A stretch of DNA of 64,000 nucleotides, from contig CAINVT010000009.1 in the NCBI GenBank assembly GCA_903854215.1, forward strand, positions 191 through 64,190, written 5' to 3'. The notes under the pieces are model-generated. The model saw only the letters and a list, made by a program, of their open reading frames with translations. It was not told the DNA's origin and did no database searches. Positions 44,745-49,883 of the stretch are shown here, piece by piece. Position numbers and translations under genes: made by a program. Positions within the stretch are counted from its first letter, which is position 1; every line of letters starts with the position of its first letter. Source of the DNA: an uncultured bacterium (GTDB taxonomy: Bacteria > Patescibacteriota > Minisyncoccia > Phycocordibacterales > UBA2100).

Positions 44745-46271
44745 ATGAGATTTTCCGGTCTATTCCATCGTGCGCACCGCGAGAGCGGTACTACCGAAAA
44801 AACACCGCTCTTCCTTCACAATACGCTCGGTAACATAACGGAGCGTTTTGATCTTCCCCCACACGTACGGACGGTGCGCATGTATAACTGCGGTCCGACG
44901 GTCTACGGTGTCCAACACATCGGCAATCTATCGATGTTCGTATTCACCGATGTGCTGCGACGAACGCTTGAATACAATGGGTTTAAGGTCAAGCAGGTCA
45001 TCAACATAACCGACTTCGGCCATCTTACGTCTGACGCCGATGAGGGCGAGGATAAAATGACCAAAGGACTTAAGCGTGAGAAGTTAGCGATCACGATGGA
45101 AAATATGGTCGTGCTCGCCGAGCGCTACGCCACGATCTTTTTTACTGATCTCAAACAGCTCAATATCAACACAGACACGATAGAATTCCCGCGTGCAAGC
45201 GCCTACGTCCCCGCGCAGATCGCGATGATCCAATCGCTTGTCGAGAAAGGCTACGCGTACCAAACGGCACATGGCGTTTATTTCGACACGTCGCGATTCC
45301 ACGACTACGGCAAGCTCGGCGGCGTTGATCTTGTCGGCCAAAAAGAGGGCGCCGGCCTTCGCCAAGGCTCCGGCGGGCAAAGCACGCATGTCGAGATCAA
45401 TCACGAGAAACATCATGCGCATGATTTTGTCTTATGGAAATCCGATTCGAAGCTCGGTTGGGAATCACCGTGGGGATTGGGCTTCCCCGGCTGGCACATC
45501 GAGTGCTCAGCAATGATTCGTGCCGTCTTGGGCGAACAGATCGACATCCACACCGGCGGCATCGAACACATTCCGATCCATCATAATAACGAGATCGCTC
45601 AGTCCGAGGCCGCAACAGGAAAAAAACCATTCTCGCGATTCTGGATGCATCGCGCACACATACAGATCGAAGGCGGCAAGATCGCAAAATCGACCGGTAA
45701 TGTTATTTTTTTGTCCGATGTCATTGCACAGGGATACCATCCGCTCGCCCTTCGGTACCTTTTTCTCGGCGCGCACTACCGCACCAACTCAAATTTCTCC
45801 TGGGAAGCACTTGCTGCATCGCAGTCTGCCTTTGCCAAGCTCCTCGCGGTATGCGTACATTTCGCCGATCGCGAGCCAGGCACGGTCCCCGTTACATGGC
45901 GAGAGAAATTCATCGAGCGCATTAACGACGATCTTGATACTCCCGGAGCGCTCGCGGTCATTTGGGAAATGATCAAAGACAAGTCCCTTTCGCCGGAAGA
46001 TCTCGTCGCCGGGCTTCTGGACTTCGATCGCGTCCTGGGTTTGAATCTTGTTGATCCTAACGAAGCCGCTCTCGCGCTGGCGACGGCCGAGCTCAAAGAA
46101 GAAGTCGCGCTCGACGATCTCACCGTCCAAGTCCGCACCCTCATCGAAGAACGCGAGCAGGCGCGCCGCGACCGTTCATGGGACAAAGCTGATGCACTTC
46201 GCGACCAGATTGACGCCCTCGGCTATACACTTGAAGATGCTAAAGACAGCCTGCGGGTTTTCAAAAAATAA
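44745..46271 (+). CDS. cysS: cysteine-tRNA ligase
   Basis: [16 protein letters not shown] (HIGH region), WHIECSAM zinc site, and KIAKSTGN (KMSKS-like). Confidence 0.9.
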
Positions 46272-46394: not shown

Positions 46395-49300
46395 TCAATC
46401 TTCGACAACAACGAAGTTGACTAGCCGATTCGGTACGATGATGACGCGCGAGACAGTCTTACCATCCAGCTTTTCTACTACCGCTTCGTGGGCTAAGTTT
46501 TCAAGCGTCGATTTGTCCGAATCAATGGCCGCATCGATTTCCCCACGGGTCTTGCCGTTGATCTGTATCGCAATGTGCGCGGTGGTGCCTTTTGATTTCG
46601 TCTCGTCGGCGACCGGCCATGGCTCGAGTCGCAATTCGGTCGGGTGACCGCTTTTTTCCCAGAGCTCGTGAGTGAGATGCGGTGCGAATGGCGCGAGCAA
46701 TTTGAGAAACGTCTCGTACGCTTCAGATGAAACACTGTCGAGCTTCTCATATTCATTCAAAAGGATCATCAGTGCCGAGACGGCCGTATTCATTTTGAGC
46801 TTCTCAATATCATCGCTGACCTTCTTGATCGTCTGATGCAAAAGTGTTTCGAGCGGAGGTTCAAGCTTCGTCACGTTATCGGCCTTGATATCGGCAACGC
46901 GTTCAAGGAATCGCCGCATACCAACGACGCCGTTGTTGTTCCACGCGACCGGCTGATCGAATGGCCCGATGAACATTTCGTACAGGCGCAACGAGTCAGC
47001 GCCGACGGATTCAACGAGCGCATCTGGGCTCACCGAGTTCCCCTTCGACTTTGACATCTTCGAGCCGTCTTCGGCGAGAATAAGCCCATGGCTCGTGCGC
47101 TTCATATACGGCTCTGGCGAAGGCACTAATCCCTGGTCGAATAGGAATTTATGCCAAAAGCGCGAATAGAGAAGGTGCAGCACCGTGTGTTCCATGCCTC
47201 CGTTGTACCAATTCACCGGTGTCCAATACTTCATCAGGTCCGGCGAAGCGAATTCATGCGTATTCTGCGGATCTATATAGCGCAAGTAGTACCAGCTCGA
47301 GCCCGCCCAGTTGGGCATCACGTCCGTTTCTCGCTTTGCATCACCGCCGCACTTCGGGCACTTTGTGTTGACCCACTTAGTGATATTTGCGAGCGGAGAT
47401 TCTCCCGTTTCGGTCGGTTCATATTTTTCCACTTCCGGTAACGTGACCGGCAATTGATCTTCCGGCACCGGCTGCCATCCGCATCTCTCACAATGGATCA
47501 TGGGTATCGGCTCGCCCCAGTATCGCTGGCGGCTGAATACCCAATCTCGAAGTTTGAATGTCGTTACCATCTTCCCGCCGACGAATTCAGTGATCATTTT
47601 CTTCGCCTCATCGCTCGGAAGCCCGCTCAGTGTACCGGAGTTGACCAGAAATCCGTCATCGACAAAAAATTTGTCATTGAGATATTCCCAATCAATTTTA
47701 TCCTTGTCTTTTCCTCTATTTTTAAGCTGTTGCTCCTTGAACTTTTTAACAAATCGCTGTGACAACACCAGGGCTGTGTGGTGATTCAGTGATTTCTCTT
47801 GTTCCTCGAAATCATCATCCTGGCAATCAAATTCTCGAATATATGGTCCTATATCAATTTCGATTCCCTCGTCGTTTTTTAATATTGAATTCGTCAAATT
47901 TTCTGATATTTTCTTTTCTGCCACCTTGTGGAATCCAAGTTCGCCGAATAACGTAAGCAATTTCTGGTATGAATTGTCATCTTTTGTTATCAGATCAATA
48001 TCCTCAAATTCGCGATAAATGATTTTTGCATAAAAAGCGCAGGCCAAACCACCCAAAACCCAGAATTTGATATCTTTCTTTTTTGCGGCCTCATATATGG
48101 TGTCCAATGCAGTCAAAACTTTTTCAGTTTTTTCAAAGGCGGACATATCCGGCGTAACGGATTGAATAATAGGTAACCCGTACTTCTTAGCAAATGCACC
48201 ATCGCGCTCATCATGGGCTGGCACGGCCATGATAGCGCCGGTGCCGTAACTGCCGAGCACATAATCAGCAATGAAAATCGGAATCTCTTTTTTATTCGCC
48301 GGGTTTATAGCCTTGATCCCCTTCAGTTCGACGCCGGTCTTTTCTTTACCTTCAGCTGTGCGATCGATATCCGATTTGTTCCGTGCCGCCGTTTGATACG
48401 CGATCACCTCATCTTTGTTATCGAATTCATTCGCAAGCATCGAGACCAACGGATGTTCCGGTGCAAGTACCATATACGTCGCGCCGAATAATGTATCCGG
48501 GCGAGTCGTGAATACGGTCAAGCTCTGCATAAAGAGTTTCTTGAGACCATCGGTAATGGGCCCGAGTTCAAGCGATTCTTCAGCATCCGTCTGTTCGAGC
48601 ACATACTTTCCAGTCGCCTTCGAGATATATAATCCGCGAAGCGGAAGGTACGGGTCTACAGCGCCGTGCGATTCCGAAGTCAGAATAACGGGTCGTGTCG
48701 TTTCTATATGTGTTGCAACTTTCCCGGGCGTTATGAAGCATAAATTATTTCTCCATTCCGCATCAACTTTTCCACCACGCTTTCGGGCGATGTCCGCATA
48801 ATATGACTGCATACGACCACCTATCTCTTCGATGGAAAGTGATTTCTCGTCATCTCCGGCGAGCGCATTCCGTTTTACAGCGATCGGATCGATCATTTCC
48901 CCGTCGATAAAGAATCCGCTGTCATCGGCGAATACCGGCAGATCGGTGAGCGCTGCGAGAGCCCGAGCTTTTTTTTCGGAATTTTCTTCGAGAGTTCGGG
49001 CGTCTTCCGAGACGTCAAACCGTTCGATGCCAATATCCTTTGGCATCAACAATTCGATATCGATATGCCCTTCTTCGAAAAGTTTCCGCATACGCTTGAG
49101 CTTTCCCAGATTATTCGTGGCGAAAACGATCCTCATGCGCGGACGTTGCCACGAAAGCGAAAATGATATCTCCGCTCCATCCGACGGTCCGATCCAATTG
49201 CGCTGTTCCGTCTTCGCTCGCTCGATGTAATCAACGGTATCGAGGTCGTCGTAAAGTCGCTGCGCATATTTCGTAATTGCCATCATCCACTGTTCCTTTT

Positions 49301-49883
49301 CACGCTTCTCAACCGGCGTACCGCATCGCTCGCAGCAGCCGTCGACGACCTCTTCGTTGGCAAGTCCGATCTTGTCCTTCGGGCACCAATTGATCAGCGT
49401 CTTTGCTTTATACGTCAGACCTTTTTTAAAGAATTGTAAAAAAAGCCACTGCGTCCATTTGTAATATGAAGAATCGGTCGTGTTGATCTCGCGAGACCAA
49501 TCGAACGAGAGCCCGAGCGATTTGATCTGCCGGCGGAAGTTGTCGGTGTTCTCTTTGGTAACGATACGCGGATCCCGACCTGTCTTCAGTGCATAATTTT
49601 CCGTCGGTAAACCGAATGCATCCCAGCCGATCGGATATAAGACGTTATACCCTTGTGCACGGCGTTTGCGCGCCAGGACGTCGAGCGCGGTCCAGCTCCG
49701 CACATGCCCTACATGAAGCCCCTCACCGGAAGGATATGGAAACTCGATCATCAGATAATCCTTCGGCTTCTCTGAAACATCATCGGCGCGATACGCCGAT
49801 TCCTTCTCCCATCGAGACTGCCACTTCTTCTCTATCTTCTTGTGATCGTAATTCTTCATAATAAGTAATGTACGTCCTTCCAA
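46395..49883 (-). CDS. leuS: leucine-tRNA ligase (1162 aa) with two large insertions in the CP1 editing domain: a Ham1/ITPase-like domain and an ANT(2'')-like nucleotidyltransferase domain
   Basis: Class I HVGH and KMSKS motifs and an intact editing core (TVFTTRPDTLFGATY; GTGAIMAVPAHDERD). Insertion 1 (residues about 245-453, nt about 48525..49151) contains RIVFATNNLGKLKRMRKL ... LEENSEKKARALAALTDLPVFADDSGFFIDG, the Ham1/RdgB motif set. Insertion 2 (residues about 578-745, nt about 47649..48152) contains KFWVLGGLACAFYAKIIYREFEDIDLI...LFGELGF, the aminoglycoside 2''-nucleotidyltransferase-like pattern. Confidence 0.88.
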   Translation of the reverse strand: MEGRTLLIMKNYDHKKIEKKWQSRWEKESAYRADDVSEKPKDYLMIEFPYPSGEGLHVGHVRSWTALDVLARKRRAQGYNVLYPIGWDAFGLPTENYALKTGRDPRIVTKENTDNFRRQIKSLGLSFDWSREINTTDSSYYKWTQWLFLQFFKKGLTYKAKTLINWCPKDKIGLANEEVVDGCCERCGTPVEKREKEQWMMAITKYAQRLYDDLDTVDYIERAKTEQRNWIGPSDGAEISFSLSWQRPRMRIVFATNNLGKLKRMRKLFEEGHIDIELLMPKDIGIERFDVSEDARTLEENSEKKARALAALTDLPVFADDSGFFIDGEMIDPIAVKRNALAGDDEKSLSIEEIGGRMQSYYADIARKRGGKVDAEWRNNLCFITPGKVATHIETTRPVILTSESHGAVDPYLPLRGLYISKATGKYVLEQTDAEESLELGPITDGLKKLFMQSLTVFTTRPDTLFGATYMVLAPEHPLVSMLANEFDNKDEVIAYQTAARNKSDIDRTAEGKEKTGVELKGIKAINPANKKEIPIFIADYVLGSYGTGAIMAVPAHDERDGAFAKKYGLPIIQSVTPDMSAFEKTEKVLTALDTIYEAAKKKDIKFWVLGGLACAFYAKIIYREFEDIDLITKDDNSYQKLLTLFGELGFHKVAEKKISENLTNSILKNDEGIEIDIGPYIREFDCQDDDFEEQEKSLNHHTALVLSQRFVKKFKEQQLKNRGKDKDKIDWEYLNDKFFVDDGFLVNSGTLSGLPSDEAKKMITEFVGGKMVTTFKLRDWVFSRQRYWGEPIPMIHCERCGWQPVPEDQLPVTLPEVEKYEPTETGESPLANITKWVNTKCPKCGGDAKRETDVMPNWAGSSWYYLRYIDPQNTHEFASPDLMKYWTPVNWYNGGMEHTVLHLLYSRFWHKFLFDQGLVPSPEPYMKRTSHGLILAEDGSKMSKSKGNSVSPDALVESVGADSLRLYEMFIGPFDQPVAWNNNGVVGMRRFLERVADIKADNVTKLEPPLETLLHQTIKKVSDDIEKLKMNTAVSALMILLNEYEKLDSVSSEAYETFLKLLAPFAPHLTHELWEKSGHPTELRLEPWPVADETKSKGTTAHIAIQINGKTRGEIDAAIDSDKSTLENLAHEAVVEKLDGKTVSRVIIVPNRLVNFVVVED

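Follow-up and report, generated by a model that had tools for sequence, protein, structure and literature searches.

What are two large insertions doing inside the editing domain of an essential aminoacyl-tRNA synthetase (aaRS), and how do such insertions come to be there? The question is raised by leuS, the gene for leucyl-tRNA synthetase (LeuRS), in a 64,000-nucleotide stretch of an uncultured bacterium (assembly GCA_903854215.1, contig CAINVT010000009.1, positions 191-64,190), which is called the window here. The LeuRS encoded by the window is referred to as the query. Our data indicate that in this Paceibacterota bacterium of the candidate phyla radiation (CPR) a single, syntenic and orthologous leuS hosts a complete, autonomously folding enzyme in each of two surface loops of the CP1 editing domain. 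Such cassettes would move between leuS alleles by homologous recombination, not as transposons or inteins, and the modules may well work together with LeuRS as tethered accessory enzymes. To this explanation as a whole a probability of about 0.6 is given, and the part of it that concerns the architecture and the exchange of cassettes is considered very probable.

Two enzyme folds inside the CP1 domain

The leuS open reading frame lies at 46395..49883 on the minus strand, as a sequence-only reading of this DNA had reported, and gives 1162 amino acids when it is read from a TTG codon. The reported length, however, is probably too great. A Shine-Dalgarno-like GGAAGGA lies upstream of the ATG at 49859, homologs begin at the same ATG, and so does P0001, a public database entry of 1154 amino acids which is 100% identical to the query and starts 8 codons after the TTG. 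For these reasons ATG 49859 is the likely true start and the product likely has 1154 amino acids. The protein scores 920.9 bits with the bacterial LeuRS equivalog TIGR00396, whose cutoff is 548.4, and matches the LeuRS of Thermus thermophilus (1H3N) at E=6e-206. Leucylation and editing are its predicted functions. The class I and CP1 motifs that had been described as intact were all located: HVGH (aa 57-60, nt 49704-49715), KMSKS (aa 942-946, nt 47046-47060), TTRPDT (aa 459-464, nt 48492-48509) and AVPAHDERD (nt 48201-48227). The conserved Asp region GTGAIMAVPAHDERD ends at aa 561, and the CP1 editing core (PF13603) is recognized at 181 bits.

The alignment of the query with 1H3N consists of four collinear pieces and has two large gaps, at T. 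thermophilus residues ~240/243 and ~360/375, both of which fall in CP1. Site 1, the first of them, immediately precedes the Thr-rich editing peptide, and site 2 follows the conserved editing Asp region at a distance of ~15 residues. The minus-strand segment 49158..49859 codes for the N-terminal half of the Rossmann-type catalytic domain, which contains HVGH together with the ZN region and the first strand of CP1 (...NWIGPSDGAEISFS). This part aligns with 1H3N 1-240. The CP1 editing core between the cassettes (aa 455-575, with PF13603) is encoded by 48159..48521, also minus, and aligns with 1H3N 243-360. The remaining part at 46395..47651 of the same strand, which aligns with 1H3N 375-876, contains the last part of CP1 (FLVNSG...), the other half of the catalytic domain, which bears KMSKS, the anticodon-binding and C-terminal domains and the stop codon. 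The reading frame is unbroken and CP1 sequence resumes on both sides of each insert. Alignment to relatives as well as to 1H3N places the inserts in two CP1 loops, in agreement with the earlier statement that two blocks interrupt CP1.

The cassette at site 1 extends over aa 243-454 (48522..49157, minus strand). These boundaries were taken from the alignment and replace the proposed residues 245-453; as an insert the block stands. The Pfam family Ham1p_like (PF01725) is found at 51.1 bits in the full protein and at 54 bits in the module, against a gathering score of 22.5, with positions 1-72 of the 186 profile positions aligned. When a profile was built from 14 embedded modules and 8 free-standing relatives, it matched RdgB/Ham1 structures of the PDB at E=3e-16. 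The AlphaFold (AF2) model of the isolated module is a confident one, with a predicted local distance difference test score (pLDDT) of 91.3 and a predicted template modelling score (pTM) of 0.84. A Foldseek search with this model returned RdgB, Ham1 and human ITPA at E ~1e-12 to 1e-8 over 204-223 columns, with template modelling (TM) scores of 0.63-0.81. In view of the profile match, the confident model and the full-length superposition on RdgB/Ham1/ITPA, the module forms a complete ITPase fold with both lobes. The identification of the block as Ham1-like has thus passed the profile gathering score, the fold prediction and the fold search. The fold search with the same model also returned Maf proteins and, at ranks 22 and 27, one chain of a structure named KomBC complex (entries 9v0g_A and 8zsg_E of December 2025; E~1e-7 to 1e-8).

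Residues N16, K19, E51, N59, K63 and D79 (module numbering) are invariant in the 22 embedded and free-standing sequences and align with N10, K13, E41, N49, K53 and D69 of RdgB. The phosphate- and metal-binding residues (T-x-N-x-x-K, E, E-N...K and D-[ST]-G) are present, and each of these motifs is kept in 25-27 of the 27 modules; the catalytic signature of the Ham1-like family is seen in all 27. In the query they are read at TNNLGK (49101-49118), EENSEKK (48969-48989) and DDSG (48915-48926). Of the RdgB motif set claimed earlier, EEN and DDSG are therefore there, whereas TGNxGK is not, its place being taken by TNNLGK. The C-terminal SHR motif for base recognition is lacking in the query and was found in none of the 27 embedded copies. 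Scores with the RdgB/HAM1 equivalogs are far below their cutoffs (TIGR00042, 40 bits vs 145; NF011397, 49 bits vs 234). Judged by its sequence the module is a distinct Ham1-like subfamily, without SHR and below the RdgB cutoffs, for which ITP/XTP specificity should not be assumed.

The second cassette, at aa 576-744 (47652..48158, minus strand), had been placed at residues 578-745 and read as an ANT(2'') or Pol-beta-like nucleotidyltransferase (NTase). The insert was found again with these slightly different boundaries, and the family and fold hold. PF10706 (Aminoglycoside-2''-adenylyltransferase, Aminoglyc_resit) scores 26.9 bits in the full protein and 31.2 bits in the module against a gathering score of 21, so that in profile searches both inserted segments are above Pfam gathering scores. 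NTP_transf_5 remains just under its gathering score (26-30.8 bits vs 31.2). The module has what defines a minimal Pol-beta-type NTase, namely an alpha-beta-alpha-beta-alpha-beta core, the G[GS]-x(9-16)-[DE]x[DE] signature and a third carboxylate, placed on a following strand. The NTase motif is kept in four of four modules, and GG-x14-DID (47994-48053) and the downstream EIDIG (47847-47861) do not vary even in a relative with 23% identity. In the fold search the best match is ANT(2'')-Ia, and CCA-adding enzymes and MenT toxins are among its neighbours. The curated model for ANT(2'')-Ia gives 12.3 bits against a cutoff of 350, and those for Lnu(D), Lnu(AN2) and Lnu(P) give 15-17 bits against cutoffs of 300-340. 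The module, which is described here as ANT(2'')/Lnu/TM1012-like, is like ANT(2'') in fold only and is no ortholog of known resistance enzymes. Its family is very rare, as an exhaustive HMMER search among 1.84 billion sequences gave 5 representatives at <1e-10. The visible AT-richness of this block is borne out by a GC content of 0.369 and a GC content at third codon positions (GC3) of 0.391, as against 0.516 and 0.613 in the rest of leuS.

Probable exchange of cassettes among leuS alleles

The survey of related proteins comprised the 120 best homologs of the query, all of them Patescibacteria/Paceibacterota LeuRS of 762-1268 amino acids, in a joint alignment; the inserts were clustered after the conserved CP1 flanks had been trimmed. 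All length variation is confined to the same two CP1 loops. Site 1 has 7 amino acids when it is empty and ~182-242 when it is filled, and for site 2 the values are 0-64 and ~131-240. At least six unrelated module families occur at these loops: Ham1-like, NUDIX, an alpha/beta serine hydrolase, two NTase types and one unknown. Ham1-like modules (27 sequences) are found at site 1 only. NUDIX modules (64, together with 2 divergent ones) are mostly at site 2, and P0102 has them at both sites. The alpha/beta Ser_hydrolase is represented seven times, mostly at site 1, with P0100 carrying it at site 2. The NTase of the query type occurs in three proteins (the query, P0002 and P0013), a distant NTase is found in P0068, and a family of 131-133 amino acids without Pfam match at E<0.1 is at site 2 of P0011 and P0047. 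The most common state is an empty site 1 with NUDIX at site 2 (46 proteins), followed by both sites empty (35), Ham1-like with NUDIX (14), Ham1-like with an empty site 2 (9), hydrolase with an empty site 2 (4) and then rarer combinations. Hence the comparison of relatives that the sequence-only reading had suggested finds the same two loops either empty or filled by different families.

The insert architecture is present in dozens of independent assemblies and in 17 species-representative genomes. In one more distant LeuRS (L037:171-3866, an open reading frame of 1232 amino acids with 40% core identity to the query) modules stand in tandem around site 2: an NTase-like module at the site itself is followed, ~5 residues on, by a 171-aa alpha/beta-hydrolase with GHSAG. 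This hints, possibly, at a third insertion point. Automated names do not reflect such architectures; P0047 (1129 aa) is called 'non-canonical purine NTP pyrophosphatase' and many others are called 'class I tRNA ligase family protein'.

How did the loops come to be filled so differently? The gene order DUF5671-leuS-cysS-corA is common to the window and to two related loci, L001 and L002. The LeuRS of L001 (P0002), with a core 89% identical to that of the query, has an empty site 1 and the NTase at site 2; in that of L002 (P0005), 86% identical in its core, both sites are empty. Because of the shared gene order, filled and empty leuS are orthologous single-copy genes and not paralogs. On a neighbour-joining tree of the insert-free core the occupancy is patchy, with a parsimony minimum of 13 changes for site 1 and 38 for site 2 over 120 taxa. 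Identity of the Ham1-like inserts does not track identity of the core (Spearman 0.05, p=0.31). The module nearest to that of the query belongs to P0029 (69% identical), the core of which is only 54% identical, and closer hosts hold more distant modules. For the NTase module the DNA identity between the query and P0013 is 77.6% (59% at third positions), as compared to 62.6% (38%) for the core; between the query and its sister P0002 the module has 77.2% (52%) and the core 80.3% (55%). GC3 of the module is 0.39, 0.40 and 0.24 in its three hosts, against 0.61, 0.59 and 0.58 in the remaining leuS. The short flanks LPIIQS and GFLVNSG travel together with this module, and sliding-window DNA identity shows the expected recombination pattern at the site-2 flanks alone. 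A recent swap, and the clearest example, is seen in the leuS genes of P0017 and P0024, which are 100% identical at the DNA level outside nt ~840-1620. Within this tract one has a NUDIX cassette and the other an unrelated AT-rich filler of 61 amino acids, with mosaic patches alongside.

It is from the patchy occupancy, the discordant divergence, the foreign GC3 and the allele pair with identical flanks that we infer an exchange of cassettes by homologous recombination between leuS alleles, by way of the conserved CP1 flanks. Boundary-matched direct and inverted repeats were sought at the cassette borders, and neither terminal repeats nor target-site duplications were found; nor is there a transposase-like gene among the immediate neighbours and the scanned long open reading frames of the window. 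A transposon or insertion-sequence type of element was rejected, as inverted repeats and a target-site duplication are lacking. The junctions of module 1 (LSWQ...FMQS|LTV) and module 2 (VTPD...VDDG|FLV) are not those of inteins. An intein was rejected because the junctions are without Cys/Ser/Thr...His-Asn, there is no endonuclease and the folds are Ham1 and NTase, not Hint; the absence of intein features noted at first sight is thus upheld by both junction residues and folds. The ratio of nonsynonymous to synonymous substitution rates (dN/dS) of the NTase module is ~0.09 between the query and P0013, and other pairs have a nonsynonymous difference (pN) of ~0.10-0.13 with saturated synonymous sites. 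By these values the NTase module is under purifying selection. The two possibilities that had been left open for the inserts, recruited functional modules or lineage-specific accretion, can in this way be sharpened to complete, constrained copies of free-standing enzymes which are laterally exchanged.

Free-standing relatives and the possible role of the modules

In the alignment with P0121-P0128, free-standing proteins of 199-218 aa with identities of at most 59%, the Ham1-like module is matched from their initial Met to its own end. The NTase module shares 46% identity with P0133 (160 aa) along a stretch of 147 residues. By these alignments each module of the query is a full-length copy of a free-standing protein. 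When one genome per species was scanned, the Ham1-like family was found inside LeuRS at 17 loci of Patescibacteria and as a free-standing gene in two DPANN archaea. In both archaea (Nanoarchaeota and Pacearchaeota), and likewise in additional assemblies that exist for one of the two, the genes for eIF-1A, the Ham1-like protein and an archaeal-type leuS follow one another on the same strand, the leuS products scoring 965 and 831 bits with TIGR00395. The Ham1-like gene is separated from leuS by a gap of 22 nt in one locus and overlaps it by 35 nt in the other. The archaeal proteins are 54-59% identical to the query module, as compared to 42-49% for bacterial free-standing forms. In 99 of 100 neighbour-joining bootstraps the archaeal genes fall inside the most recent common ancestor of the embedded crown clade. 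In a metagenome scan with the NTase profile a bacterial-type leuS (TIGR00396, 883 bits) was found whose stop codon is followed, 1 nt later, by the ATG of a free-standing homolog. The core of that LeuRS is 42% identical to the query, and both of its CP1 sites are empty.

The two module families of the query are accordingly fused to LeuRS in one lineage and adjacent to it in another, and the LeuRS types involved are not the same. That the modules are functional partners of LeuRS is the favoured, by no means secure, interpretation, because relatives of both modules adjoin leuS elsewhere in unfused form. As for the chemistry, the site-1 module with its ITPase fold keeps the phosphate- and metal-binding residues while lacking SHR, and the site-2 module, a minimal NTase of ~170 amino acids, has the GG...DxD...D carboxylates. 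The best guess is that small molecules of the nucleotide type are hydrolysed or nucleotidylated at the synthetase, which is the weakest step of the explanation. Nucleotides, groups linked to nucleotides, or esters are the targets of all the cassette chemistries. NTP/dinucleotide pyrophosphatases, small-molecule-type nucleotidyltransferases and serine hydrolases are typical house-cleaning and antibiotic-inactivation classes. The most plausible role would be to detoxify adenylate-like inhibitors of LeuRS or to clear nucleotide by-products; alternatively, the modules could clear dinucleoside polyphosphates or act on the tRNA 3' end. Protection of LeuRS is preferred among these because of the enzyme classes involved, the rapid turnover and the polymorphism within populations. 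LeuRS is a known target of nucleotide- or adenylate-like compounds, e.g. agrocin 84/TM84 (PMC5059758). A protective or detoxifying role nevertheless has to be taken as tentative. It could also be possible, at a similarly modest level of confidence, that the CP1 loops form a recombination-driven cassette platform for nucleotide- or ester-processing enzymes, a sort of accessory genome that is expressed within an essential protein, with the turnover reflecting an arms race in groundwater communities. On that speculative proposal the enzymes would be tethered to LeuRS, or coupled to it through operons in DPANN archaea and distant bacteria, and they would either protect it from inhibitors that mimic adenylates or are of nucleotide type or clear toxic by-products specific to LeuRS. 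Were the proposal true, the Ham1-like subfamily would be a dedicated LeuRS accessory factor across the bacterial-archaeal divide.

Several observations weigh against the explanation preferred here and should be set beside it. The contig of the query is alone among the 120 LeuRS in pairing Ham1-like with NTase. As many as 24 of the 66 NUDIX cassettes depart from the GX5EX7REUXEEXGU box (e.g. EINQETGY, EIEQETGF; P0017, P0027, P0033, P0036, P0037, P0039 and others) and two of the seven hydrolase cassettes are without GxSxG. Because of these deviations, selection may act on something other than catalysis in some cassettes, and part of the NUDIX cassette family may be catalytically altered or inactive. 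The model of the NTase module is confident for residues ~6-107 only, since the alignment consists of just four sequences; at 108-169, the C-terminal and substrate side, the pLDDT is <50. By sequence alone, comparison of this module with the PDB is weak (E=0.007 to TM1012). On the side of exchange, the trees are neighbour-joining trees, and sliding-window DNA identity of the query against P0002 and P0005 reveals no recombination tract at site 1, where ~80% identity is too noisy. On the side of partnership, a strict clade of archaeal and embedded Ham1-like sequences was recovered in 46 of 100 bootstraps, so that support is mixed, and the archaeal cases may all go back to a single ancestral arrangement. 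Free-standing Ham1-like genes of bacteria do not adjoin leuS; two of them are located between secY and adk, another overlaps a NUDIX gene and the last is elsewhere. For Ham1, the link by neighbourhood is therefore provided by a single group of archaeal lineages. For the NTase, only one intact free-standing gene was recovered together with its surroundings (L038). The substrate and the benefit proposed for the modules are inferred.

The rival explanations differ in what they make of this evidence. According to one of them the loops are merely a place to park: in the tiny genomes of CPR bacteria, generic house-cleaning enzymes (ITPase, Nudix and others) would have been lodged, neutrally or by streamlining, in permissive loops of a highly expressed essential gene; they would serve the general nucleotide pool and have nothing to do with LeuRS. 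The modules are indeed complete copies of free-standing proteins of the house-cleaning type, the bacterial free-standing Ham1-like genes sit in housekeeping operons (secY-adk), and both loops vary naturally in length, with 0-64 amino acids when empty. A UvrC protein with an NTase-like insert, described further below, hints at wider insertion into housekeeping proteins. No second Ham1, NTase or NUDIX copy is present in the 64-kb window, a small sample, which fits an embedded copy that is the only one of the cell. Tolerance of the loops, however, does not explain why unfused relatives of both families stand beside leuS of two types, nor why a single protein, and two of its loops, should have attracted at least six families that are unrelated to one another. 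Presence/absence polymorphism between alleles that are otherwise 100% identical points to an accessory function rather than to core house-cleaning. Parking is accordingly regarded as rather unlikely, though it is the strongest of the rivals.

It is improbable that the inserts are platforms on CP1 with a structural, regulatory or binding role, such as nucleotide sensors or docking sites for tRNA or partner proteins, for which enzymatic activity would be irrelevant or lost. Such a role would suit the off-box NUDIX cassettes, which include E-to-Q changes, as well as the hydrolases without GxSxG, the loss of SHR in 27 of 27 Ham1-like modules and the position of the modules within ~5-15 residues of editing-site peptides. 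Against it, both modules of the query keep their catalytic signatures, the invariant Ham1-like residues align with those of RdgB and the same residues occur in free-standing relatives, and a specific structural role is hard to reconcile with unrelated folds being swapped at one site. Least credible of all is a selfish or mobile insertion of the intein or transposon kind, or an artefact of assembly or gene calling that has fused separate genes. The patchy distribution, the foreign base composition, the lateral spread and the position in an essential gene, typical of inteins, could suggest it; yet intein junction residues, an endonuclease, terminal repeats and target-site duplications were all missing at these inserts, the frame is continuous, the same architecture recurs in independent assemblies and species-representative genomes, and dN/dS is ~0.09.

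Tethered accessory enzymes, exchanged as cassettes, thus remain the preferred explanation. The free-standing relatives themselves offer some further observations. At L028:4001-4606 and L029:510-1118 the Ham1-like gene, 46-49% identical to the module, is flanked by secY and adk, where the ribosomal-protein super-operon ends, and is followed by an unannotated gene of 270-275 amino acids. At L031:3613-4657, in a cell-wall gene cluster, the gene of the Ham1-like P0127 has 41 nt in common with the end of a NUDIX gene (142 aa). A Ham1-like and NUDIX pair as in L031 co-occurs in 14 LeuRS; comparison of the L031 NUDIX with the LeuRS type gave generic Nudix-box similarity alone (18 bits).

Known systems and the rest of the window

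The CP1 domain of LeuRS has idiosyncratic peptide insertions that differ between the eukaryotic/archaeal and the bacterial enzymes, and eukaryotic aaRSs carry appended domains. The known CP1 insertions resemble the present ones in that extra sequence is accommodated at surface loops and the editing core (Thr-rich peptide and Asp) remains intact. They are, however, short peptides or sub-domain elements fixed in large lineages, whereas here whole enzymes of 130-240 amino acids and unrelated folds are polymorphic and laterally exchanged. The fusion of IleRS with an N-acetyltransferase domain (NF040702) is similar as it joins an essential synthetase to an unrelated enzyme that modifies small molecules. 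Fusions of aaRSs are terminal or single and fixed, whereas the present modules are nested within an editing domain, in two loops that are hot spots of insertion, belong to at least six alternative families and show presence/absence polymorphism. RdgB, Ham1 and ITPA share with the site-1 module the whole fold (TM 0.63-0.81) and the N-terminal catalytic motifs; the differences are scores far below the cutoffs, no SHR in 27 of 27, and members that are embedded in LeuRS or adjoin leuS in DPANN. From ANT(2'')-Ia, LnuA and TM1012 the site-2 module differs by its lack of orthology to resistance enzymes and its membership of a very rare family. Inteins, too, are foreign autonomous modules set in-frame and patchily in essential conserved genes, but splicing junctions and a homing endonuclease are absent here and the module stays in the mature protein.

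In a domain-insertion survey of 2026 the LeuRS editing domain PF13603 is insert-only, with zero host instances (PMC13114784); here, by contrast, the editing domain acts as the host. Insertion domains of RNA polymerase beta/beta' (BEAN/HABAS, PMC11515920) and segmentally variable genes (PMC387263) are comparable as conserved essential enzymes with lineage-variable hot-spot segments. These sources appear to concern a small set of structural insertion folds, or variable segments, and not interchangeable enzymes with free-standing counterparts beside the host gene. In the searched literature, which covered few subscription journals, no account was found of enzyme domains inside the CP1 domain of LeuRS, nor of an exchange of such domains in the manner of cassettes. 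The kind of event is already known, since domain insertions and fusions occur in aaRSs and other core enzymes, and the sequences are public although unnamed or misnamed. The cassette polymorphism in an essential gene, the editing domain as a host and the association of LeuRS with the Ham1-like family across domains of life look new.

The aaRSs are among the most conserved enzymes, and here whole enzymes are swapped between alleles of an essential single-copy gene. In effect, natural variation has mapped two sites in CP1 that are highly permissive for insertion, which is useful when LeuRS fusions or switches are to be engineered. For the Ham1-like subfamily and the rare NTase family, LeuRS is the only consistent genomic partner, which points to a possible, so far unrecognised activity linked to LeuRS; inhibitor detoxification, clearance of adenylates or dinucleotides and tRNA 3'-end chemistry are candidates. 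Variation in gene content that is hidden in leuS, a core marker of CPR bacteria, matters for annotation and for phylogenomics, where leuS is a frequent choice of marker. In addition, a sharing of modules between CPR bacteria and DPANN archaea is documented.

An insert of related type was noticed in another housekeeping protein. P0143 (773 aa) is a UvrC with GIY-YIG, UVR, UvrC RNase H and HhH domains, and it contains an Aminoglyc_resit-like NTase stretch at ~480-573, apparently inside the RNase H endonuclease region; insertion of enzyme domains into housekeeping proteins may therefore reach beyond LeuRS. The window itself is dense in translation genes (AlaRS, GluRS, CysRS, LeuRS and YchF), and scans with Rfam and for tRNA over positions 1-64000 gave no tRNA, rRNA or Rfam family at gathering score. 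The cysS gene (44745-46271, plus strand) encodes a CysRS of 508 amino acids that holds a Gly/His-rich stretch. At 52403-58244 on the minus strand an 897-aa ResIII helicase-type protein is encoded beside a 747-aa N6/N4 DNA methylase. This pair, likely a type III restriction-modification system, starts ~2.5 kb from leuS and directly after ychF.

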